NCBI GenBank assembly: GCA_025361625.1 | Contig: JANYKL010000017.1 | Location: 10,033-74,032 of the forward strand | Length of the DNA: 64,000 nt | DNA from: Acidobacteriaceae bacterium | Lineage (GTDB): Bacteria; Acidobacteriota; Terriglobia; Terriglobales; Acidobacteriaceae | Reading direction: 5' to 3' | Shown: positions 1 through 30,646 of the stretch, in pieces | Layout: each line of letters starts with the position of its first letter | Position numbering within the stretch: the first letter of the stretch is position 1 | Position numbers and translations under genes: made by a program | Notes under the pieces: generated by a model | The model's input: the letters and a program-made list of their open reading frames with translations, nothing else | Told to the model about the DNA's origin: nothing | The model's database searches: none

Positions 1-314
1 GGCGCCGTGGTAAGCACGAAGAAGACCATGATGGTTCCATGCATGGTCAGCAATTGCAGATAGAGTTCGGGCGTCATCACGCCGCCGGGCGCGCCGCTTT
101 GCGACAACAACTGGAGTCCGGGGATGGCTGCGTTTGTCCATGCAAGATGAATACGCATCAGCCAGGAAAGGAACATTCCAACGTATGCGGCCACCAGGGC
201 TAACGCGTAATACTGTTTGCCAATGACCTTATGATCCTGGCTGAATACGTGTTTCCGAAGAAAGGTCGTCGGAGGACCGTGATGTGCTGCCGCGTGGACT
301 GACGTGTCGTGCAT
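1..314 (-). CDS. ctaD: cytochrome c oxidase subunit I, N-terminal part (gene runs off the window start)
   Basis: My own minus-strand translation from the ATG at 314 gives MHDTSVHAAAHHGPPTTFLRKHVFSQDHKVIGKQYYALALVAAYVGMFLSWLMRIHLAW...LYLQLLTMHGTIMVFFVLTTA. It carries the subunit-I hallmarks DHKxIGxxY and HGxIMxFF. GAGGTGG Shine-Dalgarno about 5 nt upstream. Absent from the ORF track because no stop lies inside the window. It sits directly downstream of coxB. Confidence 0.85.
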   Translation of the reverse strand, partial: MHDTSVHAAAHHGPPTTFLRKHVFSQDHKVIGKQYYALALVAAYVGMFLSWLMRIHLAWTNAAIPGLQLLSQSGAPGGVMTPELYLQLLTMHGTIMVFFVLTTA

Positions 315-365
315 GGAACCCACCTCGGGAGATATTTCGAATCGCCGCTTTCGCGGACGAAAAAA

Positions 366-1166
366 TTATTGTCCGGCCTGCTGTTTGAGCCATGCGTCAA
401 AGTCCGCCTGGGGCATGACATTCAGATAGGCTTTCATGTTGTAGTGCCCTAAGCCACAAAGCTGGGTGCAGACGATTTCATACTTACCAACTTTAGTGGC
501 CGTGAAATGGAGCGTCACGTCAAGCCCCGGCACGAAGTCCTGCTGCAGGCGTAACTCTCGCACAAAAAATGAGTGACCCACATCCTTCGCATGCATCAGA
601 AGATGAATTTCTTTGTTGACGGGGACCGCCATTTCGGCCGCCACAATGTCGTCTCTCGCATCCACGTCATGCTCTGGATCAAGGCCGAAAATATTCTGCG
701 TTCCTTCATTCACCATCTCGGGATGAATGCCGCCGAATTTTTTATCCGGGCCGGGATAGCGGAAATAGAACGCGAATTGCCCTGCCTGCGCTTGTATCGG
801 CATGGCATCAGAGCTGGGAGGCGTGAAATAAACATTCGCCCAAGCCTTCGCGCCGAAGACGCCGAGGGCCAAGACCTCAATGCCCACGACCAGGAAAGCG
901 GCAATCACTAACCCCTTCGCGCCTCCGGGAAATTTTGTGATCTTCGCGTCAGCAGGACGATTGGAGAATTTCCAGATGAAGAATCCCAATACGAATTGCG
1001 CGGCCAGAAAGGAGATGCCAGCCTCGGCCATCGTTTCCGACATTTGCTTGTCGATCAAGGCTCCGTGGGTCGAGATATCCTCCGGCGCCACCCAGGTGTG
1101 CCGCAGAATGGGTATCGCGGAGAGAATCGCGATTACGAAGATGGTGACGGCAAACAACTTCGCCAT
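366..1166 (-). CDS. ctaC: cytochrome c oxidase subunit II (CuA cupredoxin domain, no fused cytochrome c)
   Basis: ORF 366..1202. Two N-terminal TM helices, then the CuA motif VCTQLCGLGHYNM (CxxxCxxxHxxM) plus an upstream H in DVGHSF. The probable start is the MAKLFAV Met at 1166; 1202 is the alternative. Confidence 0.9.
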   Translation of the reverse strand: MAKLFAVTIFVIAILSAIPILRHTWVAPEDISTHGALIDKQMSETMAEAGISFLAAQFVLGFFIWKFSNRPADAKITKFPGGAKGLVIAAFLVVGIEVLALGVFGAKAWANVYFTPPSSDAMPIQAQAGQFAFYFRYPGPDKKFGGIHPEMVNEGTQNIFGLDPEHDVDARDDIVAAEMAVPVNKEIHLLMHAKDVGHSFFVRELRLQQDFVPGLDVTLHFTATKVGKYEIVCTQLCGLGHYNMKAYLNVMPQADFDAWLKQQAGQ

Positions 1167-1244
1167 ACAGCCTCCAACAAAGGTTCTACAGGTTCTACAC
1201 AAAAAGAAGGCGGCGGAGAGACTTACATTCCGCCGCCAGATTGC

Positions 1245-1946
1245 TTAATAGGCTTTCGCCTTGAAGGTGAAGTTTACGTCCTTGGACTCGGCGCCGGTAA
1301 TGGTGACGTCGGCGGTCTGTGTGCCGTAATCCTCATGCCATGCGGTCAACGTGTACTTGCCGGGAGGAAGATCAGGCAGTTTGAATTCGCCACCGCTCTT
1401 GCTCACGTCATAGTGATTCGTTTTCAGCACCACGAAGTAGCCGTGCATCCAGGGATGGATGTTGCACTTTACGGGGATGAACTCTTCCTTTTCATACTTC
1501 TGCGTAATCGGCGGGGTTCCGGGTGGCTGCGACTTATTCCACTCCTGGTTCACTTTTGCCAGCGGGTGGATGTTATGGGAGGTCTGGTCGCTGTTGCTGA
1601 TCTTCAGTTCCTGATTGGTGTGCATGGGCAGCACGTGGGGAACATACTGGCATCCCTTTTGATCGTAGGTTACAGCCTGGCTGGGAACCTTACCATCGTC
1701 GTTTGCGCCTGCAGACACGTAGACTACGACGTTCTCAAGGGAGTTGTTTGCACCGGTAACAACGTTTTCACCGGTGATTGGAGTGGCGTGCTGTTTCGCA
1801 CAGCTCGGCTCCTTCGACATATCAATTGGCTTTTGCTTGGCTGGCGTGCCCGTGTAAGTCACCTTGCCGGTGACTGATCCGGCGAACATGAGTGACGAAC
1901 TCATAAGCAACGTTGAAAAGACAAACAATGTTTTCTTAGTGCGCAT
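1245..1946 (-). CDS. secreted type-1 copper cupredoxin fused to CarboxypepD_reg-like beta-sandwich domain(s)
   Basis: Signal peptide MRTKKTLFVFSTLLMSSSLMFA. Amicyanin-like ligand pattern: SHNIHP ... CNIHPWM (C-x2-H-x2-M). C-terminal LPPGKYTLTAWHEDYG...NFTFKAK is typical of carboxypeptidase-regulatory-like folds. Strong SD GAAGGAGGAAG. Confidence 0.7.
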   Translation of the reverse strand: MRTKKTLFVFSTLLMSSSLMFAGSVTGKVTYTGTPAKQKPIDMSKEPSCAKQHATPITGENVVTGANNSLENVVVYVSAGANDDGKVPSQAVTYDQKGCQYVPHVLPMHTNQELKISNSDQTSHNIHPLAKVNQEWNKSQPPGTPPITQKYEKEEFIPVKCNIHPWMHGYFVVLKTNHYDVSKSGGEFKLPDLPPGKYTLTAWHEDYGTQTADVTITGAESKDVNFTFKAKAY

Positions 1947-1982
1947 TAGGGTGCTTCCTCCTTCAAGTATTCGCTAATAATT

Positions 1983-2924
1983 TTACTCCTGCCCTCCCCC
2001 GGGCGCCTTGTTCTCAGCGGGGGCGGGGTTGGCAGGCGGCGGGTTCTTATCCACATACGGGGGAATGACTCCGTGCGCGGTTGAAAGAACTTCAGTCTCT
2101 TTTCCGTGGCGGTGGACCTGCAGAGTGCGCAGGAAATGAACGAGGTCCCATGCGTCATTCGGCTGGATTACGTCCGCAAACGACGGCATTGGAGTGCCGT
2201 CGACGCCGGTCATGAAGATGCGGTAAATGTCGCGATTGGTAACTCCGCACTTGAAACGCGAATCGTCTTTCGCGAGCGCGAAGTTATAGGGCCTGATGGG
2301 CTGATCTTTGCTGTCAGTTAGAGTCGCCGCCGACGGTCCATCGCCTTCGCCATGCGGACCGTGACACTTCCAGCATTCCAGTTTCGTGAAAAGCGCCTTG
2401 CCATGCGCGATGCTGTCCATTGTGACAGGGGGCTCGGCTGGAATCTGAATAGGCTGCCCGGGCTTCTCTTTGTCCCAACGCGGCGAGAAAATTTTGATAT
2501 AGGCAACCAGGTCAGCGCGTTGCTGTTTGGTAAATGTGTTCCAAGCCGGCATATTGGAATTCGTAATGCCGCGAACGAGAGTGTTATACAAATCCTCGTC
2601 GGTCGGCAGTGTGCCGGTTGGAGTGGAGCGACACTTGAAGGTCGCAATCGTGAAGTCGCGAGGCTTTGGCTCGATCCAAACTGCGTTTTCGCCATTTCCG
2701 TCGCCATAGGTGCCGTGGCAACCGGCGCAATAACGCTTGTAGTCAGACTTTGCGCTCTCGGAGTGTCCGACGGTATTGCCGATGTGGCTTTCGATAGGCC
2801 TCACCACAACGGACGGCTTGGGATCGATCGTTGGGACGTCTTGAGCAACGGCTTGAACGCCCAAGCCCCCTACTAATGCAGCTCCAAACGCGGTAAGCAG
2901 CAGATAACGCTTTGACCTGTTCAT
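1983..2924 (-). CDS. periplasmic dihaem c-type cytochrome (c4/FixP-like)
   Basis: Two CxxCH motifs (CAGCHGTYGDGNG and CWKCHGPHGEGDG). Each is followed by a Met-ligand region (NSNMPAW, GTPMPSF). Signal peptide. ATG at 2924, with an upstream GTG at 2933 also possible. Confidence 0.85.
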   Translation of the reverse strand: MNRSKRYLLLTAFGAALVGGLGVQAVAQDVPTIDPKPSVVVRPIESHIGNTVGHSESAKSDYKRYCAGCHGTYGDGNGENAVWIEPKPRDFTIATFKCRSTPTGTLPTDEDLYNTLVRGITNSNMPAWNTFTKQQRADLVAYIKIFSPRWDKEKPGQPIQIPAEPPVTMDSIAHGKALFTKLECWKCHGPHGEGDGPSAATLTDSKDQPIRPYNFALAKDDSRFKCGVTNRDIYRIFMTGVDGTPMPSFADVIQPNDAWDLVHFLRTLQVHRHGKETEVLSTAHGVIPPYVDKNPPPANPAPAENKAPGGGQE

Positions 2925-2981
2925 ACTCAACACCCTTGCACCGAAATTAGCGCGAACGGATATCCGCCCGCGGAAAATGTT

Positions 2982-4409
2982 TTAGAAGTCGAAGTCAAAT
3001 CCAGTCAGTACTTCGCTGGAATTGATGTTCGAGCCGGTTAACGGAGCAGTGCCGGTCTGATGGAATAGGTTGAATTCATTGTGCCACGCAAACCCGGCGC
3101 GGCTTGTCATAAACGGGTTATAACGATAGCCAACCGTGTATGTCGTGATGTTCCCCAAGTCGGAACGAGTTCCCGGCGTCGACTGCTGCGACATGCGAAT
3201 GGTTTCGTAACGCGCCAGGAAGATTAACTGCGGGCTGTACACATAATGCGGCTCGACCAAGATGCCATTCCAAGTTGGACTGCGAGAGCCTGCCGCCAAG
3301 GTTGTTCCCGGCGTGTTGTTGTTCACCGCCACGCCGTCGATCAAGTCGCCGTAGCCTTGCCCAAACCAGGCACTGTCCTGACCATGCTGGGTTACGAGTT
3401 GCACGTCGAAGTGCTGCCCGAAGTAGAACTGACCGACGAAACCTTCTCGGCTGAAATTCTTGTTTTGCGTGCCCGATCCGGCGATAGCCGCGTTTGGTCC
3501 GCCGCTGGTGAGCCACGATGTAGGAGCCTGCCCCGCCATCGCATAAAATCCGAGGCGCTGCAGTCCCAGTTTGCCGGCGTCGAAAGCTTGACTACCGGTA
3601 ATGAATGTCGAGTAGGATTGCGCTCCATAGGGCAACCCAACCTGTCCATCACTCGTGCTGAGGAGAGATACCGAGTACCGAGTTCGATCGTTGTAGGAGT
3701 GACCCATGATTTCGAGCCCGAGTTGATTGTCACCCATCTGACCGAAGATGTTACCGTCCCCTACCGGAACGAAGTGATAGAGCTGATAAATCCCTCCGTT
3801 ACCCGTCAAAGTCAAAATGCGCTTTTCAGAAAGTAAGTTGTCGAGTTCGAACTTTCCTAACTTGACGTTGAGCCAGGGACTATTGAAGACGTTGTCCAAG
3901 CGCGCCATGACGGTCTCGAAGTGAAAAGACGCCGTCGCGTCAGACGAAGGAAGAACGTAGAACGAGAAGTTCTTCTCGAGCGTACCGCCAGTGTGAAAGT
4001 CAAGACCGCTAAGATCGAAGCCTGACGAAGTGATGCGCTGCTCGTTCTGGCCTACACTGCTGCCACCGGCTGCGGTGTCCACGACCTGCTTGCCGGAGCT
4101 CAGGCGATGCCATAGGGGGACGATACGGAACGTGACCGGCCAATATCCTGGATTCTGCCAGATGGGACTGTCGTGCTCGTTCATCAGCTGATATCCGTTG
4201 TCTTTAAACTTCTGTCCGAAGTTATTCAACATCGGCCAGCTTTCGTGACAAGCCGAACATCGAAGGCCGTATTTCCTGGCGAACGCTGGGAGCGCGTTTG
4301 CCGACGGACTTGCACTGAGAATCAAGAAAAGTAAAACAAAGGCGGCGGCAAGAAACGAACCGTTTTGCCGCGGCTTGGGATATCCGTGAGATGGCGCCCA
4401 CACACGCAT
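2982..4409 (-). CDS. outer-membrane beta-barrel with a single N-terminal haem c site (Cyc2-like fused cytochrome-porin candidate)
   Basis: Signal peptide ending ...PSANA. It is immediately followed by LPAFARKYGLRCSACHESWPMLNNFGQKFKDNGY (one CxxCH). About 420 aa of alternating Gly/Tyr/Ser-rich beta-strand-like sequence follow, ending FDFDF (C-terminal Phe, an OMP signature). GAGGAG SD before the ATG at 4409. Confidence 0.65.
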   Translation of the reverse strand: MRVWAPSHGYPKPRQNGSFLAAAFVLLFLILSASPSANALPAFARKYGLRCSACHESWPMLNNFGQKFKDNGYQLMNEHDSPIWQNPGYWPVTFRIVPLWHRLSSGKQVVDTAAGGSSVGQNEQRITSSGFDLSGLDFHTGGTLEKNFSFYVLPSSDATASFHFETVMARLDNVFNSPWLNVKLGKFELDNLLSEKRILTLTGNGGIYQLYHFVPVGDGNIFGQMGDNQLGLEIMGHSYNDRTRYSVSLLSTSDGQVGLPYGAQSYSTFITGSQAFDAGKLGLQRLGFYAMAGQAPTSWLTSGGPNAAIAGSGTQNKNFSREGFVGQFYFGQHFDVQLVTQHGQDSAWFGQGYGDLIDGVAVNNNTPGTTLAAGSRSPTWNGILVEPHYVYSPQLIFLARYETIRMSQQSTPGTRSDLGNITTYTVGYRYNPFMTSRAGFAWHNEFNLFHQTGTAPLTGSNINSSEVLTGFDFDF

Positions 4410-4753
4410 GCTGCACTCCTCAGAGATTTTCATAATGATCAAAACAAATGAAGCCCACGCGCGCCGCGAAACTTTCAAAATTGCGTTTGCGTAAGACTCC
4501 TGAAGTCAGGTGCTTGCAGAACATTTTTATTCTCGGTAAAGTGGTCCAACCACCCACCAGCGGCTGGATATTACTACCCCAAGTTACGAAGTGCAAGAGG
4601 GAACGCCGTATTTTTTTACAAATATTTTACAATTTATGATTTTTCAGAGGCTGCCCCAAAGCACAAATCTTTACATAGGAGGCGCGGGGATCCGGTTGAC
4701 ATCAAACGCCGCGAAGTATAAGACTCAGCTTCAAAGTGCGGGGGAGTTAGGTT

Positions 4754-5695
4754 GTGAACGCTGGCAAAATCGTTAGGACGATCGAGCGTCGCGCGGGGCT
4801 GATGATTGCAGCGTTTTTGCTCACAGCCATCCCTGTAACGCCCGCGCTGGGCCGAGAGAAGAACGTCTTACAATACGGGGCCGGCCTAATCGTCAACATA
4901 CCGTCTCCGACGGACGAAGTTGCTCAAGCAGTCGAAGAAGTCGCGCAAAACACGATCATCCGGGGAACCAAGGAATACAACAAAGACGAATATGTGAAGG
5001 GTGCTGAGCAAGCGCAATCGACACCCGTCTTCCCAAAGTGGACGGATGGCGGCAAGGTTTTCTACAAGGTCCGCCTGCATGCGCTGAACCCGTTGAATTT
5101 CAAAAACAGCAACGATGCCGGAACTCTCGCCGTCCGCTACGTGGTTCAACCCCAAGGGGAGAAAAACACTGTGCTGCGCATCGACGCGGTTTTTGTCGAG
5201 GAATTTCGACGAACTGTTCACCAGTCGAATGGCTCGGTCGAGAGCAGCGAGTACAAGGACATACAGGATCGCGTTCAGGCAGCGGAGCTCCTGAAAAAAG
5301 AGACGGCAGAGGCTTTGGAAGCGAAGCAGGAGCACGACACCAAGCAAAAATTTGAGATGGAGAGCAACGCAAACGTTGCCAGCACACCTTCCCCTGACGC
5401 GGAAGCAAAGAGCGCAGCGGCGGAGGCGAGCACTTACGAAAATTCCGTATTGCGCGAAACGGGCGTGTCGCTCGAACAGCATGTTGCCGATCTGCGGCGT
5501 GAAGTGCAGCGCCTGGTGAGGCAACCAGGGGCACCTCTCAAGTCGGCACCCTTCCGCACGGCCAGCACGCTCAGTTCGCTCGATCCGGGAGCGGAGGTCT
5601 TGATTGTCATTTCAACCCGCTACTGGTACGGGGTCGAGACGCACGACGGCCAGCATGGCTGGCTTCGCCGTGATCAGTTGGAAGAAGTGCGATGA
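4754..5695 (+). CDS. hypothetical exported protein, central coiled-coil, C-terminal SH3b-like segment
   Basis: GTG start preceded by GGGGGAG. Hydrophobic N-terminus (RRAGLMIAAFLLTAIPVTPALG). Charged coiled-coil region. C-terminal VLIVISTRYWYGVETHDGQHGWLRRDQL resembles bacterial SH3. ATGA overlap with the next gene. Confidence 0.5.
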   Translation: MNAGKIVRTIERRAGLMIAAFLLTAIPVTPALGREKNVLQYGAGLIVNIPSPTDEVAQAVEEVAQNTIIRGTKEYNKDEYVKGAEQAQSTPVFPKWTDGGKVFYKVRLHALNPLNFKNSNDAGTLAVRYVVQPQGEKNTVLRIDAVFVEEFRRTVHQSNGSVESSEYKDIQDRVQAAELLKKETAEALEAKQEHDTKQKFEMESNANVASTPSPDAEAKSAAAEASTYENSVLRETGVSLEQHVADLRREVQRLVRQPGAPLKSAPFRTASTLSSLDPGAEVLIVISTRYWYGVETHDGQHGWLRRDQLEEVR

Positions 5696-7161
5696 ATCGC
5701 TTCCGTGTGATCTTTGGTGTCATCTGGGGTGTGATCTCGCGGCGCAGCTTTTTATCTTCGGGACTGGCTCTTGGATTGTGGCTGCAGGGGCCAATTGTTG
5801 CCGCACAGAATGCGAGACAATCGGTGGCCACCGCGGCGCAGGTATCGGCCGTCGAACGCACTTTTGCGCTGCCAAAAATCAAAGTTGAAAAGGCTTTGAA
5901 AGAGTTGCAGGCGTCCTTGAGCGGCAGGCTCCCTGCCCTTGATGGATTTGCGGTCGAAGGACAACACCCGTTGTCTCGATATCAGCGCGGATATTATCAA
6001 TCCTCCGTGCAGATCGTTCCGGCTGCCGGTGGAGGATCGACTGTTCGGGTGACGACGAAAGTGACGGCATGGTACGCAGATAAGACTGCCGGGCGATCGG
6101 GCTACCAGTTACTGACTTCAAACGGACGGCTGGAGGCTGACCTTCTAGACCAAATTTCTGACGTTTTAGGCAACACTGTAAGCGCGACTTCCGCTGACGG
6201 CGCATCAGGCTCCGCAGCGAGCGGCTCCGCAGCGAGCGGCACCGCGCGCGAGCCAGCGCCAAGCTCTACAACCAGTCAGACGGCAGCAACGAAAAACGAG
6301 AATCATGGGAGCGATTGGTCAGCAATTTCCGCACCGGGGCCTCGCTCGGGTAAGTCGGCGCCATTCGCTTCTCCGCAGCAATCTCCGTCGCACTCTCCGT
6401 CGCAATCTGTGGGGCTCTCCAGGGACCAACTGGCGGAAACAAAGGGCGCGCAACGGCTGCCTGGCAGCAGCTCCGGAAACACCCTGCAGGCGCAAGCAGC
6501 GGCGCTCGAAGAAGTTCTGAAGAATCAAGCGCATCCCAAAAATCTTGTGGCCATCAAAAAGTCTGGAACGCCGGTTGTGGCGACACCTAGTTTAAGCGGC
6601 AAAACGCTTTTTATGGCGAGCGCTGAAGATGAATTCGAGATGCTCGATTTTAATGCCGACTGGGTGCACGTTCGTATCTCGGGCTTATCGCGCGGCTGGA
6701 TCTGGCGCACGAGCTTAGAGATGCCGGAAGGAATCTCGGATGTTCCGAAGGTCGCCGCTACGGGGGCGGGTGTGATCGCGGATCTATTTCAGGTATCACG
6801 AGAAGAAACGGCGCCTTTCCCGGGTGATTGGGCTCCGCTGCGGGGGAAGAACGTAAAAATCATCTCGGTGCAAAAAATCCAGGAGAACAGCACGAATTCA
6901 GGACCACAGGCCAAGTTGGAATACACGAAGTCGTTGCTCGAGAAAAGTTATGCGGAGCTGTCGTCCAAGGGTCAGGAATTAGCCGGCATTGTCTTGATCT
7001 TCGATTCCATCGACGGCGGAATGATTGCTGCTACGCTGCCAACGGTAAGAGCCTGGAAGGCGGGCACATTGTCGGACGCCGCACTATGGCATCAGTGCTA
7101 TTTTGATCCTCCAGAGACATTCACCGTTTCTTCTTCTCCTTCTCCTGGGGCCGGGCAATGA
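5692..7161 (+). CDS. hypothetical protein with twin-arginine (Tat) signal, Ser/Ala/Pro-rich linker and SH3b-like segment
   Basis: N-terminus has SRRSFLSSGLALGLWL, matching the S/T-R-R-x-F-L Tat consensus. Low-complexity GASGSAASGSAASG...SPQQSPSHSPSQS. DWVHVRISGLSRGWIWRTSL is SH3-like. Start overlaps the upstream stop (ATGA at 5692). Confidence 0.55.
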   Translation: MNRFRVIFGVIWGVISRRSFLSSGLALGLWLQGPIVAAQNARQSVATAAQVSAVERTFALPKIKVEKALKELQASLSGRLPALDGFAVEGQHPLSRYQRGYYQSSVQIVPAAGGGSTVRVTTKVTAWYADKTAGRSGYQLLTSNGRLEADLLDQISDVLGNTVSATSADGASGSAASGSAASGTAREPAPSSTTSQTAATKNENHGSDWSAISAPGPRSGKSAPFASPQQSPSHSPSQSVGLSRDQLAETKGAQRLPGSSSGNTLQAQAAALEEVLKNQAHPKNLVAIKKSGTPVVATPSLSGKTLFMASAEDEFEMLDFNADWVHVRISGLSRGWIWRTSLEMPEGISDVPKVAATGAGVIADLFQVSREETAPFPGDWAPLRGKNVKIISVQKIQENSTNSGPQAKLEYTKSLLEKSYAELSSKGQELAGIVLIFDSIDGGMIAATLPTVRAWKAGTLSDAALWHQCYFDPPETFTVSSSPSPGAGQ

Positions 7162-7341
7162 CGGCGATTGCAGATAGTAGTTGCCAAAATGCTCAAACAG
7201 ATGCGAGCATCGTGTGTTCAAGCATCACGGCGAAACTGGGGCCGGGTGCGGCGCTTGTGTAAATGCTCCGGCGCCAGTTGCGCTTTTTGCAACTAAGGAC
7301 ACACAATAATAAGCGGTAAATTATCGAGTAAGCGTGGGGTC

Positions 7342-8244
7342 ATGGTACAAAAATTCTCATCGTTACTGCGCGATTATGCCGAGCTTACTAAGGCGCGCAT
7401 TACAACTTTGATTGTTCTGACGGCGTGGTGCGGCTACTTCTTTGGCGCGCGCCGCATGGGCGTACCTTCACTGTCGCTAGGATTGTTGGAGGCGTTGTTT
7501 GGAATAGCTTTGGTTTCGAGCGGCACTGCTGCGTTGAACGAAGTTCTTGAAACCTCGGTCGACGCGAAGATGCGGCGAACTGCCCGACGCCCGCTGCCTT
7601 CCGGCCGCATGAGCAAGGCCCACGCAGTCACGATCGGGTTAGGACTGACTTTAGGGGGCTCAGCTTATCTGGCAATCTATGCCAACTTACTAACTGGGTT
7701 ACTCGTATTTCTGACCGCGCTGGTTTACCTCGCGGCATATACTCCGCTGAAAAAGATATCTCCTATCTGCACTTTTGTCGGAGCATTTCCAGGAGCGATG
7801 CCGGTCGTTTTAGGCTGGACCGCAGTCCGCAATCGCGTCGAAATCGAAACCGTCATTCTGTTTGCCATTATGTTTGTTTGGCAATTTCCCCACTTTTTAT
7901 CGATCGCGTGGCTGTACCGGGAAGATTACGCGCAAGGCGATATTCGAATGCTTCCGGTGGTCGAATCGGATGGAAAATCGACAATCTGGCGTATTTTGGC
8001 CTATTCCGCGATCCTGATTCCGGTGAGCTTGATGCCGGTTGCTTTGGGAATGGCCGGACGTTGGTACTTGATCGGCGCGGTGTTGATGGGTGCTGCGCTC
8101 TTCCGCGTGTCGATGGGAATGTATTACCCGCAACTGCCCGCTACGGCTTCGGCGTCGAAAGCACCAGCGCGCCGGTTGCTGCGAGCTACCATCTTTTATC
8201 TGCCTGCACTTTTTGCGCTGATGATGGTCAACTCCGGTAAGTAA
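7342..8244 (+). CDS. ctaB: protohaem IX farnesyltransferase (haem O synthase)
   Basis: UbiA-family polytopic membrane protein. LTKARITTLIVLTAWCGYF and NEVLETSVDAKMRRTARRPLPSG (N..D...D..M.RT..RP motif). WQFPHFLSIAWLYREDY is typical of CyoE/CtaB. Confidence 0.9.
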   Translation: MVQKFSSLLRDYAELTKARITTLIVLTAWCGYFFGARRMGVPSLSLGLLEALFGIALVSSGTAALNEVLETSVDAKMRRTARRPLPSGRMSKAHAVTIGLGLTLGGSAYLAIYANLLTGLLVFLTALVYLAAYTPLKKISPICTFVGAFPGAMPVVLGWTAVRNRVEIETVILFAIMFVWQFPHFLSIAWLYREDYAQGDIRMLPVVESDGKSTIWRILAYSAILIPVSLMPVALGMAGRWYLIGAVLMGAALFRVSMGMYYPQLPATASASKAPARRLLRATIFYLPALFALMMVNSGK

Positions 8245-8277
8245 TCTTAAATTGCGAAGATCCGATATCTGGGCAGG

Positions 8278-10050
8278 TTAGTTCTCGGCCAGTTCGAGTT
8301 CAATCTTCTTACTCGCAACATCCAGCTTCGTAATCTTAAATCTGGATACTTGTCCGGGTCGCAACGATTCTGGCTTTGTCTCTTCGGGGGGCGGGCCGGT
8401 CTTCCATCGCGCTTGCAGCATCGAACCTAAAGAAGATAAGTCAGCCTTCGCTGCCTGCGCGGTTTCGCTCGCAGGATTTTTTTCTTTCGATTGCTGCCTG
8501 AGGAGGCTTGAAGCAATCACTCCCTCGCCAAGCTCGACGCGCCCTCTGTCTCCGGAAATTTCAACGAATCGCCCGCTCACAACATCTCCTGCTTTATGTT
8601 CGGCGAGATACTCGTCGAGTCCCGTGGGCACAAGTTGTTTCATGCTCAGCCGAATCGTTCTCTTCTGGGTATCGATCGCGATGACTTGCGCTTTCACGAA
8701 CTGACCCACCCTGAGAACTTCCTGGGGATGATTAATGCGCTTCTCCGCGCTGATCTCGCTGACGTGGATCATGCCTTCGATACCCTCCGCCAGTTGCACA
8801 AACCCGCCAAACTTCGTAATGCTGGTCACTGGCCCTTCGATCACGGTACCCGGCGCGAACTTTTCCGGAGCAGCGGCCCAAGGGTCTCCCAGGGTTTGCT
8901 TGAGACCGAGCGACATGCGCCGTTCCGCGAAATTTACGTTTAAGATCACGGCTTCGACAATATCGCCCTGCTTCACGACGTCTTTCGGCGTGCGCACGCG
9001 CTTTGCCCAAGACATCTCCGAGATATGAATCAAACCCTCGATGCCGGGTTCAACTTCCACAAACGCGCCAAAATCGGTCAAGCGGCTAATGGTTCCTTTC
9101 ACTCGTTCGCCGGCTTTGTATTTGCCGGTCACAGCCTCCCAGGGATGCGGTTGAAGCTGTTTCATGCTAATGGCGATTCGGTGCTTTTCGGAGTCGATCT
9201 TGATAATCCTGGCCTCAATTTGCTGACCAACTTCGAGCACATCGGAGGGCTTCGCAATCCGGCGCCAGGAAATCTCGCCCACGTGGAGCAAGGCATCGGC
9301 GCCGCCGATCTCGACGAACGCACCGTAGTCAGCCAGGTTGCGCACTACTCCCTGCACCGTGTCGCCTTCTTTTAGCTCGCTGAAGCGACGCGACTTTCCG
9401 GCCTGTTCCTCCTCTTCAGAAACCGCCCTGCGATCGACCACGAAGTCTTCGTCGTCGACATCGAGTTTGATGATGCGACAACGAATTTCCTGCTCCACCA
9501 GTTTCGCAAGTTCCGCGGCGTCGCGAGTTCCGCTGCGAGATGCCGGCATGAAAGCGCGGACACCGACATCGACACTGAGACCTCCCTTGACGACGCCCGT
9601 GACCGTACCGACGATGGTGGCCTTCTCCTCGAACGCTTTCTGCAAAGAGGTCCAGTCGGTAGGCCGCTCCACTTTGCCGCGTGTCAGTTCGTAGTAGCCT
9701 TCCGGATCGCGTCCTTTGACCGTGACCTGCAGCACTTCTCCAGGCGCTGGCGGTTTGTCAGCCGGGAACGCGGTCAACGGCAAAATGCCTTCTGTCTTGA
9801 ATCCGATATCGAGAATCACGGAATCGGCGGTGACTGAAACCACGGTGGCGTCACGGCGTTGAGAGCCGCCTTCTGATTTCCTGGCGTGACTGTGTTCGTA
9901 TTCGGAAAGAATGTCCTTGAAGGATTCGGAGGACGACTCGGTTGCGGGCGAGGCCTCGGCGGATTCTTCTGGAGCCTTGGGACGTGAGTTGCTTGAATTA
10001 TCAGGTTCCGTAGGGAGGTCGATTTCGCCGGCAATCTTTAACTTTTGCAT
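8278..10050 (-). CDS. rpsA: 30S ribosomal protein S1
   Basis: Six recognisable S1 OB-fold repeats (e.g. GTVTGVVKGGLSVDVG, VQGVVRNLADYGAFVEIGG, VKGTISRLTDFGAFVEVEPG, IEGPVTSITKFGGFVQLAEG). The likely start is the MQKLKIAG Met at 10050; the ORF extends to 10194. Ser/Glu-rich N-terminal extension. Confidence 0.92.
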   Translation of the reverse strand: MQKLKIAGEIDLPTEPDNSSNSRPKAPEESAEASPATESSSESFKDILSEYEHSHARKSEGGSQRRDATVVSVTADSVILDIGFKTEGILPLTAFPADKPPAPGEVLQVTVKGRDPEGYYELTRGKVERPTDWTSLQKAFEEKATIVGTVTGVVKGGLSVDVGVRAFMPASRSGTRDAAELAKLVEQEIRCRIIKLDVDDEDFVVDRRAVSEEEEQAGKSRRFSELKEGDTVQGVVRNLADYGAFVEIGGADALLHVGEISWRRIAKPSDVLEVGQQIEARIIKIDSEKHRIAISMKQLQPHPWEAVTGKYKAGERVKGTISRLTDFGAFVEVEPGIEGLIHISEMSWAKRVRTPKDVVKQGDIVEAVILNVNFAERRMSLGLKQTLGDPWAAAPEKFAPGTVIEGPVTSITKFGGFVQLAEGIEGMIHVSEISAEKRINHPQEVLRVGQFVKAQVIAIDTQKRTIRLSMKQLVPTGLDEYLAEHKAGDVVSGRFVEISGDRGRVELGEGVIASSLLRQQSKEKNPASETAQAAKADLSSLGSMLQARWKTGPPPEETKPESLRPGQVSRFKITKLDVASKKIELELAEN

Positions 10051-10323
10051 TTTATAAGTCGACTTTATGGATGGACTCTGTCTTGCAGTCTGAAAGTTTT
10101 GCCGTGAAATCAATCTGGGCACTGCCGCCCCATAAAGGATAGCACTCACCGCAGCAGCGCCGGTGCGCGGCGCGCCTGGAAGAGGCAAGAGCATACAACA
10201 ATCGACATCGTGATCGGCTAGGGGTCAAAGATCGAAACGGGTTTCGGGAACGGAACCTCGGTGAATTGGACATCGACGGAAAGGTCCGCTAGATCTGACG
10301 GCTAGTAGTACAGCGCTTGAAGA

Positions 10324-11537
10324 TCAGCTTGCGGCTTGATCGCGGAGTGAACTCTTGAGTGGGGCGCTAGCGCGAATCGTGGTTCCTTCTTCATTGGTGG
10401 CTATGCTGAAGTCTCCGCCAATCTGCCTCATTCGTTCGTGCATGCCCATAATTCCGACGCCGGGCCTGAAGGCTTTTCCAGGTAACTCATCGGAAGATTG
10501 CTTGCCGGTGTCGGTGATCTCCACATGAACCTGATCTTGCGAGGACAGCAAGCGTATCAGCGCGGTCGTGCTCTTCGAATGGCGATGGATATTCGTCAAT
10601 GACTCTTGCACAACGCGAAAAAGTGCAATTTCAATCTCAGGAGGAAGACGGTGTATTTCCGGACTGACTTCTAACTCGACTTTGATACCGCTGCGAAGCG
10701 AAAATCCCTCGGTGTACCAGCTCAGTGCTGATTGCAATCCAGTCTCGTCAAGAAGTGGCGGGTGGAGCAGGTAAGACATGGTGCGAAGCTGGCGGCTCAT
10801 CTCTTCGGTGAGAACCAGACTGTCGGCCACCAAGCTTTTTGTCTCCTCGTCGACACCGTCGGTTTTTGAAGAGACGACATCGAGATTGATTTTCAGAGCC
10901 GCCAGCATCTGGCCAGTGCTGTCGTGCAGTTCGCGGGCCAACCGTCTTCTCTCATCATCTGCGATTTCAAGAGGCGACCGGTCAACTCGCGGATTTCTTC
11001 GGTCTTGGCGGCGAGTTCGGCGGTTCGCTCGCGGACGCGGCGCTCGAGTTCGTCGTGCGCTTTTTTCAACTCGAGTCTTGCCCGTTCCGTCTCGGCCGTC
11101 TGCAACCTGGCTTCTCGTTCGGCCTGCTTCATGCGAAGTAAAGCGCCGACCGTCGCGAGCAACTCATTGCCGGAGATGGGCTCGGCAAGGTAGGCGTCTG
11201 CACCGCCTTCGAGGCCGCGGACGCGGTGCTCGGCATCCACGAAGGTGGCCGAGATATGCAGGATCGGAATGTGAGCGGTCTGCGGATTGGATTTTAAACG
11301 CCGGCAAACTTCGAAGCCGTCGAAGTCGGGAAGATTGAGGTCGAGGGTAATGAGATCCGGAAGTTGATCGGCAAGGCGCAAAGCTTCGGTACCATTGCGA
11401 GCCTCAGTTACGGTATACCCGCCGCTTCGCAGAGTTCGGGTTAAGGTATAGCGCAGCGCGTCGTTATCATCGACGGTGAGGATGGTAGCGTTCATCGGAA
11501 TTGATGCGTTTTGATTCATTCGACGGGCATAACCCAT
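10324..11537 (-). pseudogene. REC - coiled-coil - HisKA_3 - HATPase_c hybrid response regulator/histidine kinase, split by a 1-nt frameshift (or a sequencing error)
   Basis: ORF 10893..11537 is a receiver domain (ILTVDDNDALRYTL...DLNLPDFDGFEV...) plus coiled coil, ending ...TGRLLKSQ then out-of-frame MMREDGWPANC. ORF 10324..10941 continues in another frame as (IA)DDERRRLARELHDSTGQMLAALK plus HATPase_c. Joined at about 10960 the product reads LLKSQ-DDERRRLARELHD, the canonical HisKA_3 H-box. Confidence 0.7.
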
Positions 11538-11546
11538 ATTCCAGTT

Positions 11547-13685
11547 CTAAGCACGCACTTCGTCTGCAACGTGAACTCCGAATGGCAGGCCCGCGCGCGA
11601 CAGGGCTTCAGCAATCCGGACTTCAGCCATTTCACGCGACCCCGTGCCCTTGAGCACGATGTCAGCGGCAGCCTTTAACTGTTCTCTTTCCTCTTCTCGC
11701 AAATCCTGAGAAGTATGAATGATGACGGGAATCTGCCTGGTTTGTGGATCTTTTTTGAGAATATCAAGGACCTCAAAGCCGCTCAAATCCGGCATAGAAA
11801 TGTCGAGCATAATCACGCTGGGCATCATTTCCTTTGCCATTCGAATGCCTTCTTTGCCACCGCTCGCCTCCAGGAGGCTGTACCTGCTGTTGGCGAGCGC
11901 TCCCTTCAGGAGATATCGTGATACCTCATCGTCATCGATGATGAGGACGTGTTCGCTGGTCGGCTTGAGGGTGCTTTGCAGCTGCTGCAATAGCCATCCG
12001 CGATCGATCGGCTTGGAGTGGAATGCGGAGGCGCCAAGTTGGAGCGCCTTTTGCTGATTCTCGACCACGGTGACGACCAGAACTGGAATATCTTTGGTAG
12101 CGGGATCGCTTTTCAAATCCTGCAACAGATCCCAAGAATGCTCCCCTTGCAGAAGAACGTCGAGGACGATCGCTACCGGCTTGAATTCGTGCAAGGCTCG
12201 CCGTGCTTCTTTCAGATCGCGCGCAGGAACAACTTGAAATTCTGTTTCCTTCAAATATTTTTCATAGATGAATAGGGCCTCGCGATTGTCTTCGACTACC
12301 AGCACTGGAAGCTTCGAAATGTCCAGTTCGCGATGCACGTCGGGAACATAAACAGCGTCGATTTCGCCATGGAAGCGCACGGGGACGGAAACAAAAAACG
12401 TTGAGCCGATTCCGACTTCGCTTTTCACATAGACGTCCCCGCCAAGCAACTGCGCCAATTTGCGGGAGAGCGGAAGGCCGAGGCCGGTTCCCTTCGCCAT
12501 TTTTTGGAGCTTGCCTTCGACCTGCGTCCATTCCTCGAAAATGCGCTCCTGATTTTCTTCGCTGATTCCAATTCCGGTGTCAGCCACGGCAAAGACTGCA
12601 GTGTTGTCGTGACTCATACGAACCGAGACGCGCACTTCGCCGCGCTCGGTAAACTTCAGTGCGTTAGAAATAAAATTACGAAGAATCTGGGATACTTTCG
12701 CTTCATCGCTGAACAACTCAGGAATTCCCTCCGGTTCGTCGAAGACCAGCGATACCGAAGAATTCTGCGACAAGAGAGGCCGCAACATGCCGCGCAGAGC
12801 CGCGAATAGAGATTCAACGCTAAACGGGGCGGGCCGGATCGTGACCTTGCCAGCTTCAACTTTTGCCAGGTCAAGGAGGTCGTTCACGAGATCGGTAAGG
12901 TCCTGGGCCGAGCGGCGAATAAAGTTGACTTGCTTTTCCTGTTCGGAAGTGAGATCGCCGTCCATGCGATCGAGCAAGATCTGGCTGAGGGCGAGCACGG
13001 AATTGAGTGGCGTTCTGAATTCGTGACTCATATTAGAAAGGAAGTGAGTCTTTAGTTCTGAAGCGCGCTGCAAGAAGTCAGCTTTGTCGTTGAGCTCCGC
13101 ATACAAAGCGACTACGCCACGATTGGTTTCATCGAGCTCCCGATTGAGCTGCGCGAGTTCGTTTTGACGGGCGCGTAGTTCTTCAAGCGTGCGCAGGAGC
13201 TCTTTATTCTGGTGTTCCAGTTCTTCATAAGGATTCTCCGAACGCCTGCGTTCGATTGTGCCCATGAATGCGTTCAGTTCCGCATCGTTTAACTTTGAGA
13301 ACCTTTGAGGTATTGCTTTTCCGAGGGTGACGACCGTGCCTTTGCCGGCCGCGCTCTGCACTTCAAATCTGTCCATCAGGCGCTTGGCGCCGATCATGCC
13401 CACGCCCATGCCGGTCTTCGAGACATACTTGCCGCCCAGAATTTCATCGACATTCGGGATGCCTCGTCCCTTGTCTCGAATGGTGACAAAAAATATTCTC
13501 TCGGCTCCGCTGTGGTAGGTAAACTCCACTAGCCCGCCGCCGGCGTACTCGAAACAGTTGCGGGCAATCTCGGAAACGGCGGTGGCGATTCGCGTCTGAT
13601 CCTGGATATCAAACTTGAGGAAAGCGGCAACAGAACGAGCACGCTGGCGAGCGAGCACGACGTCGTGCTCGAAGCGAATCTCCAT
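11547..13685 (-). CDS. hybrid sensor histidine kinase: N-terminal RsbW/RsbT-like ATPase domain, coiled coil, HisKA, HATPase_c, two receiver domains
   Basis: N-terminus RIATAVSEIARNCFEYAGGGLVEF...GMGVGMIGAKRLMDRFEV is anti-sigma-kinase-like. H-box FLSNMSHEFRTPLNSV. G-boxes DTGIGI and GTGLGLPLS. Two REC domains (VLVVEDNREAL..., VLIIDDDEVSRYLL...DISMPDLSGFEV). Start is ambiguous: ATGs at 13685, 13706 and 13715. Confidence 0.85.
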   Translation of the reverse strand: MEIRFEHDVVLARQRARSVAAFLKFDIQDQTRIATAVSEIARNCFEYAGGGLVEFTYHSGAERIFFVTIRDKGRGIPNVDEILGGKYVSKTGMGVGMIGAKRLMDRFEVQSAAGKGTVVTLGKAIPQRFSKLNDAELNAFMGTIERRRSENPYEELEHQNKELLRTLEELRARQNELAQLNRELDETNRGVVALYAELNDKADFLQRASELKTHFLSNMSHEFRTPLNSVLALSQILLDRMDGDLTSEQEKQVNFIRRSAQDLTDLVNDLLDLAKVEAGKVTIRPAPFSVESLFAALRGMLRPLLSQNSSVSLVFDEPEGIPELFSDEAKVSQILRNFISNALKFTERGEVRVSVRMSHDNTAVFAVADTGIGISEENQERIFEEWTQVEGKLQKMAKGTGLGLPLSRKLAQLLGGDVYVKSEVGIGSTFFVSVPVRFHGEIDAVYVPDVHRELDISKLPVLVVEDNREALFIYEKYLKETEFQVVPARDLKEARRALHEFKPVAIVLDVLLQGEHSWDLLQDLKSDPATKDIPVLVVTVVENQQKALQLGASAFHSKPIDRGWLLQQLQSTLKPTSEHVLIIDDDEVSRYLLKGALANSRYSLLEASGGKEGIRMAKEMMPSVIMLDISMPDLSGFEVLDILKKDPQTRQIPVIIHTSQDLREEEREQLKAAADIVLKGTGSREMAEVRIAEALSRAGLPFGVHVADEVRA

Positions 13686-13696
13686 GGTGATGAATT

Positions 13697-14731
13697 TCAG
13701 TTGCATGGACCGCACGCATCTTCGCGATTCTTAGCGACCAGTACTGTTACATCATCCCGTTCCCGCGAAAAATCGCGGAAAAGTAACCCTGCCATCAGCG
13801 CGGGATGCCTGCTCCAAATCCCTGGGTAAGGCTTGAGATCCCAACGTGTATTCACGCCGTCGGAGTGCATGATCAACATGCTTTCCTTTGCCCATGGAAA
13901 CGTAAATTCCTGAACTTTCTGAATTTGGTGGCCTACAATGCCGTTGTGCGAAGCCATTCCGCGCCTGGTAGCGGGAGCGATTATTGAGGCTGAAATATTT
14001 CCGACGCCGGCGAATTTCATGATGCCGCGCTCGAGGTTGAGGGAAGCGACGGCCATGGCGGCGCCCCGAGTTTTTTTGAGTGCGTCGTGCGCATCCTGCA
14101 AAATCATTGCGGGCGAGTCGGTTCGGGATGCGGTAAAAACTCGTTCGGCCTCACGAGCGGCTTCCGCCGCAAGAATGCCGTGTCCCAAGCCATCGACGAC
14201 CATAAGCAGGACAGACTCGGCCGTTTCTTTCGCACCCCATCCATCTCCGCAATCCTGCTCGCCCTTGATGGGAATGGATACCACGCCGACGTCGAGTCCA
14301 GAGGCGTGCCTGGAAATTTTGTTGCTCGACCAGACTTCAGCGAGCACGGCGGTACCGGCTCCGGGAACGGTATAGATATCAAACACGTCTGAAAGCCGCT
14401 TAATCGCGCCGAGGCCGTTTCCGGCAGTTCCTGCCGTGGAGTGGCCATCTTGAAGGGCGGCTGTGAGGTCTTTTATTCCAGCGCCTTTATCCAAGGCCAT
14501 CACTCGAACACCGCAGTCGTTAAGGCACCCGAACGATTCGAGGATCACCGTGCCGGAGCCGGCATGCTTGACAATGTTAGAAACAATTTCCGTGACAACA
14601 ATCGCCAGCGCTCCGCGAGGACGTTCCTCGAAGTTAAGTTTCTCCGAGTAAACTGCGGCGTGGCGCCGGGCCTCTCCGGCGTGACTGGCATCAGTGACTT
14701 GGATGATCATGCTCAGTGGTACTACTTCCAT
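13697..14731 (-). CDS. ATP-binding (RsbW-like kinase domain) SpoIIE/PP2C family protein phosphatase
   Basis: The N-terminal domain AIVVTEIVSNIVKHAGSGTVILE...GNGLGAIKRLSDVFDIYT is HATPase_c_2-like. The C-terminal half has CGDGWG...LLMVVDGLGHG...LIMHSDGV, matching PP2C/SpoIIE motifs. Alternative ATG at 14710. Confidence 0.85.
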   Translation of the reverse strand: MEVVPLSMIIQVTDASHAGEARRHAAVYSEKLNFEERPRGALAIVVTEIVSNIVKHAGSGTVILESFGCLNDCGVRVMALDKGAGIKDLTAALQDGHSTAGTAGNGLGAIKRLSDVFDIYTVPGAGTAVLAEVWSSNKISRHASGLDVGVVSIPIKGEQDCGDGWGAKETAESVLLMVVDGLGHGILAAEAAREAERVFTASRTDSPAMILQDAHDALKKTRGAAMAVASLNLERGIMKFAGVGNISASIIAPATRRGMASHNGIVGHQIQKVQEFTFPWAKESMLIMHSDGVNTRWDLKPYPGIWSRHPALMAGLLFRDFSRERDDVTVLVAKNREDACGPCN

Positions 14732-29942: not shown

Positions 29943-30067
29943 AGGGTCGTCGGGATCTGCCTGATCAACAAGTCATTATGTAGGCAATTAAAAATTGGAT
30001 GCACATTAGCTGGCCAAGATCCGGTTTGGAGATGTTAAATTATTGACTCCAGAAAGGTAGAAAAATT

Positions 30068-30646
30068 GTGAAATTCGTAGGCGGGCTGATTCTTGGTTTG
30101 ATTCTTGTCCCACTTTTCGCTTTTACCTATTTCGTTTCGGGCAGCGCTCCCGTTGCTGTTACCGATTCTGACATGCCTTTCGAAAGCTACCTGGCGCATA
30201 AGGCGTTGAACGCGCGCATCAAGAAAGAAATGCCGAAAAACGTTCCGGTGCCGGCCACCGAGCCCAATTATGTTGCCGGAGCCGACCTCTACAAGCAACA
30301 TTGTGCCGTGTGTCACGGCGTTCCTCTCTCACCGAAAACCGCGATCGCTGCGGGAATGTATCCGCACCCGCCGCTGCTTTTTGAGGGCAAGGGCGTGACA
30401 GACGATGAGGCGGGCGAAACATATTGGAAGATCTTCAACGGCATCCGCCTGACTGGAATGCCGGGATTCAGCAAGTCGTTGACGGAAACGCAGATGTGGC
30501 AGATCGCGCTACTTCTGGCGAATGCCGACAAGTTGCCGCCTGCCGCTAAGACTGTATTAGTGATGCCAGCAGTAATTCCGGCGCCTGCGGGTTTACAAAC
30601 GACCCCAACTTCTCCTGTTCCCGCGCCGCCGACGCCGACTAAATAA
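30068..30646 (+). CDS. membrane-anchored monohaem c-type cytochrome
   Basis: N-terminal TM helix, one CxxCH (CAVCHG), and a downstream IRLTGMPGF Met-ligand region. Confidence 0.75.
   Translation: MKFVGGLILGLILVPLFAFTYFVSGSAPVAVTDSDMPFESYLAHKALNARIKKEMPKNVPVPATEPNYVAGADLYKQHCAVCHGVPLSPKTAIAAGMYPHPPLLFEGKGVTDDEAGETYWKIFNGIRLTGMPGFSKSLTETQMWQIALLLANADKLPPAAKTVLVMPAVIPAPAGLQTTPTSPVPAPPTPTK

Follow-up and report, generated by a model that had tools for sequence, protein, structure and literature searches.

A Cyc2-type porin-cytochrome gene beside an aa3-type oxidase operon in a Terriglobales genome: a candidate inlet for extracellular electrons

Can a soil acidobacterium of a lineage normally treated as organoheterotrophic feed its terminal oxidase with electrons drawn from outside the cell? 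The question is raised by a 64-kb stretch of DNA from an Acidobacteriaceae bacterium (assembly GCA_025361625.1, contig JANYKL010000017.1, positions 10,033 to 74,032; hereafter the window, meaning the whole stretch analysed), which on its minus strand at 1..4409 carries five co-directional genes for a porin-sized beta-barrel with a haem motif, a dihaem cytochrome c, a 233-aa protein, CoxB and CoxA, in that order. A first-pass annotation of the sequence had likened this row to the rus operon of Acidithiobacillus ferrooxidans and proposed that it wires an outer-membrane electron acceptor to an O2-reducing oxidase. Our analysis places the barrel in the Cyc2 family by sequence and predicted fold, finds it together with the dihaem cytochrome next to two different families of oxidase, and leads us to lean, by a modest degree, towards an outside-to-oxidase electron-uptake conduit with Fe2+ as the most likely donor. 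The features of the row are as follows.

2982..4409, minus strand: Cyc2-type fused monohaem cytochrome-porin (the barrel), 475 aa, the open reading frame (ORF) being identical (100%) to the called gene product P0001
4227..4295, minus strand: Cyc2 signature ALPAFARKYGLRCSACHESWPML, residues 39-61 of the barrel, with the haem-binding site C51-x2-C54-H55
1983..2924, minus strand (alternative GTG start at 2933): periplasmic dihaem cytochrome c, 313 aa from the ATG, with two CxxCH motifs and two Pfam cytochrome c domains
1245..1946, minus strand: secreted cupredoxin-like protein, 233 aa, with its copper-site region at 1446..1577 and a CarboxypepD_reg domain at 1263..1430
366..1166, minus strand (longest ORF from a TTG at 1202): CoxB, subunit II of an A-family oxidase, with a Pfam COX2 domain and the CuA site at 435..593
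1..314, minus strand: CoxA, subunit I, of which the N-terminal 104 codons are present, as the gene exits the end of the window

A Cyc2-type porin-cytochrome at the head of an oxidase gene row

All five genes reported by the first-pass annotation are present and as tightly spaced as it described, with gaps of 57, 36, 78 and 51 bp and a purine-rich ribosome-binding site before each start. A terminator scan of the row returned sites no more numerous than in shuffled sequence and no convincing intergenic terminator, and gaps of 36-78 bp without terminators are consistent with a single transcript for the five genes. The row can be followed past the end of the window on a second contig, L001, which encodes an identical barrel protein and continues with COX1 (593 aa), two successive COX3 genes, COX4_pro and a 93-aa ORF. 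Near-identical homologues of the barrel come from metagenome-assembled genomes (MAGs) named 'Terriglobales bacterium' and 'Acidobacteriia bacterium', which supports placing the source in the Acidobacteriota.

Searches of the barrel against Pfam, NCBIfam and PDB sequences assign it to no family. Cyc2 proteins have been defined by a signal peptide, a single CXXCH, a length of at least 365 residues and a 16-strand porin resembling OprO and OprP, together with an AXPXFAR[Q/K][T/Y] motif just upstream of the CXXCH and a PXL motif 4 residues downstream of it (Keffer et al. 2021, PMC8406198). The barrel agrees with this description throughout. At 475 aa it is well over the minimum length, its three cysteines include a single CxxCH (CSACH, C51-H55), and by inspection its N-terminus has a hydrophobic stretch, FLAAAFVLLFLILSASPSANA, and then an AxA site right before LPAFAR, which places signal peptide cleavage between ANA and LP. 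The longest ORF reaches a TTG at 4478, while homologues and gene calls begin at the ATG at 4409; the C-terminal residue is phenylalanine. A regular expression written from the published definition, A.P.FAR[QK][TY].{3}C..CH.{3}P.L, matches the barrel once over its full 23 residues and is the sole such motif in the 64-kb window. The N-terminus that the first-pass annotation had likened to a Cyc2 start was quoted correctly, and it contains the complete published motif.

The haem site is a property of the whole family. Homology searches place the barrel in a family of more than 5,600 clusters at 90% identity (2,397 representatives at 50% identity with E<=1e-3) that is very abundant in soil and peat metagenomes and whose members are all annotated as 'hypothetical'. 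In alignments of 26 and of 65 homologues, reaching down to 27% identity, P41, F43, C51, C54, H55, P59, G65, D70 and G72 are invariant. An ordinary porin that had acquired a non-conserved CxxCH by chance, the outcome that the first-pass annotation had named as fatal to its proposal, is contradicted by this conservation.

Structure prediction with AlphaFold2 (AF2) agrees with the family assignment. A first model, built from 40 close homologues (77-86% identity), had a predicted local distance difference test score (pLDDT) of 43.8 and was discarded, while a model from the 65-sequence alignment (30-86% identity) reached a pLDDT of 77.5 and a predicted template modelling score (pTM) of 0.77, with 16 strand elements assigned by DSSP and a short helical region at the N-terminus. 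In a Foldseek search of the PDB the top template modelling scores (TM-scores) went to OprP (2o4v, 0.53) and OprO (4rjx and 4rjw, 0.52 and 0.51), all at E~1e-10, and the list of matches also held PorB (4aui and 3wi4). OprP and OprO are the templates reported for Cyc2 (PMC8406198), and PorB 4aui and 3wi4 are matches reported for Cyt572, the Cyc2-type cytochrome of Leptospirillum. The porin-sized barrel of roughly 16 strands with one N-terminal CxxCH that the annotation foresaw agrees with the model; the small haem domain said to plug it falls in a low-confidence region (see below).

To place the barrel among Cyc2-type proteins of named genomes, we drew a reference set from a genome collection scanned with a DNA pattern for P-x-FARQ[T/Y]-x3-CxxCH. 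The scan gave at least 120 loci, a sample and not a census, among which those listed include Acidithiobacillus, Sideroxydans, Gallionella, other Gallionellaceae, Zetaproteobacteria and Chlorobiota, and from these loci 91 complete Cyc2-type proteins were extracted for comparison. BLASTP of the barrel against those from Gallionellaceae/Sideroxydans, Zetaproteobacteria and Acidithiobacillus MAGs gave E-values of 1e-7 to 1e-12, where the pipeline of the Cyc2 authors uses a BLASTP threshold of E<=1e-5 (PMC8406198). Profile comparison reached further: with hhalign, the barrel family aligned with the pooled 91 proteins at full length with a probability of 99.9% (E=9e-34, 404 columns), and still at 97.7% (E=2.5e-12, 339 columns) when the cytochrome region was cut from both sides, against 0.1% for a reversed control. 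For scale, the Gallionellaceae and Zetaproteobacteria barrels match those of Acidithiobacillus at E=2.6e-4.

Several aspects of this evidence weigh against the conduit reading. The reference proteins are motif-selected homologues from MAGs, some of them from iron-oxidiser lineages, and not the three biochemically tested proteins. Over all 91, BLASTP and phmmer E-values of 1e-7 to 1e-16 come mostly from residues 20-80 and are flattered by the small size of a 91-sequence database, and a phmmer search with residues 81-475 alone found no match among the 91. The barrel-only profile was likewise not significant against the combined Gallionellaceae and Zetaproteobacteria group (E=0.012) or against small groups of Gallionellaceae, Zetaproteobacteria or Acidithiobacillus, and became so with the pooled 91 alone. 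In the AF2 model residues 32-61, the haem region, have a pLDDT below 50, so that a haem plugging the pore is not resolved. Pairwise similarity limited to residues 20-80 is, for its part, normal for the family, since bona fide Cyc2 proteins of different clusters share 15-25% identity and Cyt572 shares 11.4% with A. ferrooxidans Cyc2. Taken together, the motif, the length, the conserved haem site, the predicted fold and the barrel-wide profile homology identify the protein, by sequence and model, as a Cyc2-family fused cytochrome-porin, which probably belongs to the divergent Cluster 3, next to Cyt572.

The partner proteins and the oxidase

The second gene of the row encodes a dihaem cytochrome c, as had been annotated, and its only strong match in the PDB is chain B of 6h5l (E=5e-56 over residues 58-271, covering both haem domains). 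This chain is a dihaem cytochrome c of Kuenenia stuttgartiensis described as 'Conserved hypothetical cytochrome protein', which we take to be the partner of a multihaem hydroxylamine-oxidoreductase-like enzyme in that anammox bacterium. The likeness lies in the homology over both haem domains; unlike the Kuenenia protein, the window homologue is partnered with a haem-porin and an oxidase. Two better known identities were considered and rejected. No c4/Cyc1 chain is found among the PDB matches at E<=0.01, and BLASTP against the c4-type dihaem cytochrome that stands beside a Cyc2-type gene in Acidithiobacillus aligned 13 residues at the haem motif (E=0.023), so that the protein is of the 6h5l_B type, with only the haem motif in common with c4, and is not an orthologue of Cyc1. 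Nor is it the Leptospirillum cytochrome Cyt579, since it scores 49.1 bits against NCBIfam NF033864, for which the cut-off is 280. We propose that this dihaem cytochrome is the first acceptor of electrons from the barrel.

The 233-aa protein had been annotated as a secreted type-1-copper cupredoxin, a description that holds for its set of putative copper ligands and is marginally supported for its fold. Its sole Pfam domain is CarboxypepD_reg at residues 173-228 (E=6e-11), and the Pfam cupredoxin models do not match it. Upstream of that domain, H124-N125, C161, H164 and M167 are invariant in five orthologues of 28-46% identity, and HN...C-x2-H-x2-M is the ligand spacing of type-1 copper, as in amicyanin. 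A profile of this subregion has as its two best PDB matches, both marginal, the blue copper protein 5fc9 (E=0.014) and plastocyanin 1iuz (E=0.3), with whose ligands the HN and C..H of the 233-aa protein align. Neither the single sequence nor the profiles matched a rusticyanin or AcoP chain in the PDB at E<=10. The N-terminal 'GSVTGKVTYTG...' segment (residues 23-90) resembles the first strands of a CarboxypepD_reg (transthyretin-like) domain, and the cupredoxin-like region may be an insertion inside such a domain and not a simple tandem fusion.

The row ends, as annotated, with CoxB and CoxA. CoxB has a Pfam COX2 domain and an intact CuA motif (H..CxQxCx3Hx2M); its best NCBIfam match, the CoxB model TIGR02866, scores 107 bits, below the cut-off of 147.7. 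It carries CuA and no fused cytochrome c, and would thus need a periplasmic donor. The full-length CoxA on L001 matches Pfam COX1 at E=2e-123, its best NCBIfam match being CtaD_CoxA, below the equivalog cut-off. With a CuA-bearing subunit II, COX1, two copies of COX3 and COX4_pro, the enzyme is by its predicted subunits an A-family oxidase of the aa3 type. After COX4_pro, where a rus gene would end the operon, L001 has only the 93-aa ORF, which has no family match, before the strand switches.

A conserved three-gene module and its possible role

We compared 11 independent loci of the window's subfamily, chosen partly for their long contigs, in which barrel identity ranges from 30 to 100%. They are arranged as follows.

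Window/L001, L004, L133 and L132 (Terriglobales; barrel identity 100% to ~45%): barrel, dihaem cytochrome c, CarboxypepD_reg protein, COX2, COX1, COX3 (one or two), COX4_pro
L005, L006, L007 and L128 (Thermoanaerobaculia, Gammaproteobacteria and other MAGs; barrel identity ~30-37%): CarboxypepD_reg protein, barrel, dihaem cytochrome c, cbb3 oxidase
L129 (distant): the three-gene module by itself
L130 (distant): barrel and dihaem cytochrome c only
L131 (distant): barrel and dihaem cytochrome c between a Rieske/cytochrome b complex and multicopper oxidases

This revealed that the dihaem cytochrome adjoins the barrel in all 11 loci, that the cupredoxin-like/CarboxypepD_reg protein is present in nine of them, and that a terminal oxidase directly adjoins the module in eight, four times of the aa3 type and four times of the cbb3 type. 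The cbb3 part comprises CcoN, a fused CcoO/P, FixS and DsbD_2, with ccoN and ccoO confirmed by family matches. Past CcoO/P the rows extend over L005:15226-18035, L006:15170-15886, L007:9988-12791 and L128:8983-9464, and those of L005 and L007 include a P-type ATPase; because FixS, DsbD_2 and the P-type ATPase belong to cbb3 maturation and copper delivery, the module appears embedded in a complete cco/fixGHIS-like operon. Thus the barrel and the dihaem cytochrome, with or without the cupredoxin-like protein, form what is on comparative genomic grounds a conserved module. That its composition stays constant across unrelated oxidase families is best explained if it serves as an electron input to the oxidase, and the synteny check that had been suggested strengthens the idea of a conduit.

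Outside the subfamily, by contrast, such arrangements are infrequent. Among the at least 120 loci of the FARQ[T/Y] type, just 6 of those listed have a cupredoxin-like partner and 8 a similar dihaem cytochrome, several of them from Acidobacteriota. MAGs of an Acidobacteriia bacterium (L062), of the Solibacteraceae (L096) and of an Acidobacteriota bacterium (L057) carry a second, Cyc2-like FARQY lineage with a cupredoxin/CarboxypepD_reg partner nearby. At 579-589 aa its proteins in L062 and L096 are longer than the window barrel, whose best matches outside its own subfamily they are among, and L062 has CoxB- and CoxA-like genes within 8 kb of the FARQY-type gene.

The analysis shows the gene row, the barrel's place in the Cyc2 family by sequence and predicted fold, the family-wide haem site and copper ligands, and the linkage to two oxidase families; the following route would accommodate them. 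A small dissolved one-electron donor would enter the pore and reduce the haem of the porin-cytochrome, from which the electron would pass to the periplasmic dihaem cytochrome c, possibly then by way of the cupredoxin-like copper protein, and so to the CuA centre of the aa3 oxidase, which would reduce O2 and pump protons. Fe2+ would be the likeliest donor because the pore is small and every tested member of the family oxidises Fe(II), the three that have been examined biochemically doing so without exception (PMC8406198). We infer the attachment of haem, the inward direction of flow, the order of the two carriers and the identity of the donor, and likewise how energy gain would weigh against a use mainly in the removal of Fe(II) and O2 by the cell. 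With the homology points set out above stand two more: none of the homology-search matches checked comes from a cultured carrier, which limits immediate testability, and the Cyc2 authors call the function of divergent Cluster 3-type homologues uncertain (PMC8406198).

The second of these points bears on the nature of the donor, and the alternative that survives best keeps the conduit and changes what feeds it, for example to Mn(II), to Cu(I), to the reduced humics or quinones that abound in acidic organic soils, or to a solid or cathodic surface reached through a soluble mediator. Cyc2 homologues are indeed found in organisms not known to oxidise iron, nitrifiers included, and Mn(II) oxidation has been proposed for those of Ca. 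Manganitrophaceae; the soil and peat metagenomes in which the family abounds come from settings rich in humics, and in L131 the barrel pair is flanked by a Rieske/cytochrome b complex on one side and multicopper oxidases on the other, copper-handling genes being close by. The L131 region (5677-11570) comprises, in this order, a cytochrome c/Rieske/cytochrome b complex, the barrel with its dihaem cytochrome and a three-domain multicopper oxidase; genes for another multicopper oxidase, for an outer-membrane efflux protein (OEP) and for heavy-metal binding lie in the vicinity, a content that suggests a metal-oxidation or copper-handling island. Since all three tested family members oxidise Fe(II), the narrow pore with its haem inside is considered to admit dissolved ions only, and the window cluster has no pointer to a specific alternative, we regard another donor as a serious though rather improbable possibility.

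The conduit might instead be protective, removing Fe(II) or O2 from the cell surface and limiting Fenton chemistry in a heterotroph at negligible gain in growth. The hosts are Terriglobales, which are known organoheterotrophs, the row is part of ordinary core chromosome, the annotated parts of the 64-kb window show no genes for carbon fixation or reverse electron flow, and the cluster appears to use a standard proton-pumping aa3 operon (COX1-4). Electrons delivered to a proton-pumping aa3 or cbb3 enzyme would nevertheless conserve energy regardless, and the strict conservation of three proteins across phyla suggests selection for efficient transfer; autotrophy genes may also lie elsewhere in the genome, the search having covered parts of the window only. 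This makes a purely protective role unlikely. A role in oxidase biogenesis, with the cupredoxin-like protein acting as a periplasmic copper chaperone and the haem-porin importing or handling copper or haem, is a little less likely still. Assembly factors do often adjoin cox and cco operons, the cbb3-linked rows include FixS, DsbD_2 and a P-type ATPase, ctaB is near the window row and the cupredoxin fold is marginally supported, but the HN...CxxHxxM pattern is that of an electron-transfer type-1 copper site aligned with the ligands of plastocyanin and blue copper protein, the invariably present dihaem cytochrome is homologous to the redox partner 6h5l_B, the tested members of the barrel's family are oxidoreductases, and the module occurs in L129-L131 without an adjacent oxidase.

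Outward flow, in which the haem-porin would export electrons to extracellular Fe(III) or humics at low O2 and the link to the oxidase would reflect a shared periplasmic cytochrome pool, we consider very unlikely. Some Acidobacteria do reduce Fe(III), and iron reducers, Geothermobacter (L124) among them, have proteins with the Cyc2-type motif; against this, the operon link to an O2 reductase is the opposite of what anaerobic export needs, it is common to low-affinity aa3 and high-affinity cbb3 enzymes, and the cluster has no multihaem or quinol-dehydrogenase partner. That the barrel is an ordinary porin with an incidental CxxCH, lying beside an oxidase by chance, would fit its lack of a Pfam or NCBIfam family, its 'hypothetical' homologues and a fold that also matches general porins, but is effectively refuted by the complete 23-residue signature, a haem site invariant in 65 sequences and a neighbourhood kept across phyla.

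If electron uptake through the barrel is nonetheless the function, its reach could be wide. Acidic soils and peat count the Terriglobales among their dominant bacteria, and models treat them as feeding on organic carbon. A tentative extension, which we hold with less confidence than the conduit itself and would not yet rely on, is that the module is a portable cassette for extracellular electron uptake plugged into aa3, cbb3 or Rieske/cytochrome b systems, and that some abundant soil 'organoheterotrophs' are facultative lithoheterotrophs respiring Fe(II) or another reduced soil donor with O2. Such a cassette, if real, would consume Fe(II) and O2 in acidic soils and peat on a large scale that has so far gone unrecognised. 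Were the main aa3 operon of these bacteria to have a built-in Cyc2-type inlet, the oxidation of soil iron (or humics or metals) may be largely the work of uncounted organisms, and estimates of carbon-use efficiency for Terriglobales would need revision. The module is in any case a defined and testable set of three proteins, with partners unlike Cyc1, rusticyanin and Cyt579, that attaches to aa3 or cbb3, and it bears on the route of electrons from Cyc2 to oxidase outside a few model iron oxidisers. As a marker, a Cyc2-type gene in the context of its partners and an oxidase is more specific than a match to a Cyc2 hidden Markov model (HMM) alone.

The surroundings of the row are those of a chromosome. 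Throughout the window GC content stays flat at 0.53-0.57, and the genes annotated at 22.6-38.6 kb are core genes, TamB, AlaRS and RecA among them, so that the row lies on the chromosome and not in an obvious island; of a mobile island there is no sign. The nearest genes are on the opposite strand.

4754..5695 and 5692..7161, plus strand: divergent gene pair, encoding 313 aa without a family match and 489 aa with a weak SH3_3 match and a Ser/Ala-rich linker
7342..8244, plus strand: ctaB, haem O synthase (TIGR01473, 253.7 bits against a cut-off of 210.3)

The proteins of the divergent pair are secreted or anchored, and a pair of the same size lies at the same position beside the row in L004, L132 and L133, a conservation within the Terriglobales from which the pair may belong to the Cyc2-cox system. 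The ctaB gene that had been noted some 3 kb away is there, on the opposite strand and separately transcribed, and the enzyme it encodes supplies the precursor of haem A for the oxidase; in L004 a UbiA-family gene occupies its relative position. Further off, 6 kb from the oxidase row, translations alone point to a cluster of two-component genes (10324..13715, minus strand) made up of part of a histidine kinase, a response regulator and a hybrid kinase of 722 aa that carries two receiver domains. At 30047..30643 on the plus strand lies an orphan monohaem cytochrome c (Pfam Cytochrome_CBB3 / Cytochrom_C), whose neighbours are a type III polyketide synthase and an FAD-dependent oxidoreductase; no respiratory complex stands beside it.

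Relation to known electron-uptake systems

With the Cyc2 proteins of A. ferrooxidans, Mariprofundus ferrooxydans (Cyc2PV-1) and Leptospirillum (Cyt572), the window barrel has in common the signal peptide, the single CxxCH, the spacing of the motifs, a length of about 475 aa and an OprP/OprO-like barrel; the haem motif of Cyt572 is reported at C51/C54/H55, the very positions it occupies in the window barrel. It differs in being one of a 'FARKY' subfamily whose identity to any protein of a recognised iron oxidiser is ~30% at most.

The rus operon of A. ferrooxidans reads cyc2-cyc1-cup/acoP-coxB-coxA-coxC-coxD-rus (10.1101/2020.03.01.968255). The window and L001 follow it in the order of outer-membrane haem-porin, dihaem cytochrome c, copper protein, COX2, COX1, COX3 and COX4, a likeness confined to functional class. 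In the window row the dihaem cytochrome belongs with 6h5l_B and not with c4/Cyc1, the copper protein joins a cupredoxin-like region to CarboxypepD_reg and has no detectable similarity to rusticyanin or AcoP, the row has no rus gene, no ctaA or ctaB inside it and a duplicated COX3, and the host is a soil acidobacterium and not a known acidophilic autotroph. The first-pass annotation's equation of the two gene orders therefore stands for the functional classes and fails for the middle genes, which are not orthologues of cyc1 and acoP, and for the absent rus, so that the likeness is one of shared logic and not of a shared operon. In an Acidithiobacillus sp. MAG (L116:2982-7663), a Cyc2-type gene is followed by a pair of c4-type dihaem cytochromes, then a short-chain dehydrogenase and a Rieske protein; this locus was rejected as a canonical rus operon, being a pet/bc1-type row in which the Cyc2-type inlet is tied to the 'uphill' branch.

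Closer in layout are the variant COX clusters for Fe(II) oxidation that a preprint mentions in soil bacteria, in which other cytochromes c replace Cyc1 and COX3 is duplicated (10.1101/2020.03.01.968255), as in the window and L001. That remark, which a term search did not find in the published version, is brief and, unlike the present comparison, names no Acidobacteria, no three-gene module and no link to cbb3. The Leptospirillum pathway from Cyt572 through Cyt579 to a cbb3 oxidase also leads from a divergent Cyc2-type cytochrome by way of a periplasmic class I cytochrome c to a haem-copper oxidase, and its wiring is mirrored by the cbb3-linked relatives of the window module. It differs in that its genes are unclustered, while the window oxidase is of the aa3 type and the window dihaem cytochrome falls far below the Cyt579 cut-off.

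The view that a conduit of this kind would be unexpected in an organoheterotrophic lineage is weakened by earlier work, since Cyc2 had been recorded in MAGs of Acidobacteriota by FeGenie surveys, a dense cluster of acidobacterial sequences adjoins Leptospirillum Cyt572 in a sequence-network study, and rus-like COX clusters had been remarked on in soil bacteria. Our literature search found no account of the three-gene module, of its partners, which are neither Cyc1 nor rusticyanin, of its alternative attachment to cbb3 or of its prevalence in the Terriglobales, and overlap with a 2026 paper on Antarctic chemolithotrophs was checked and excluded. What this locus adds to the earlier reports is the three-gene module, the identity of its partners and its alternative attachment to a cbb3 oxidase.

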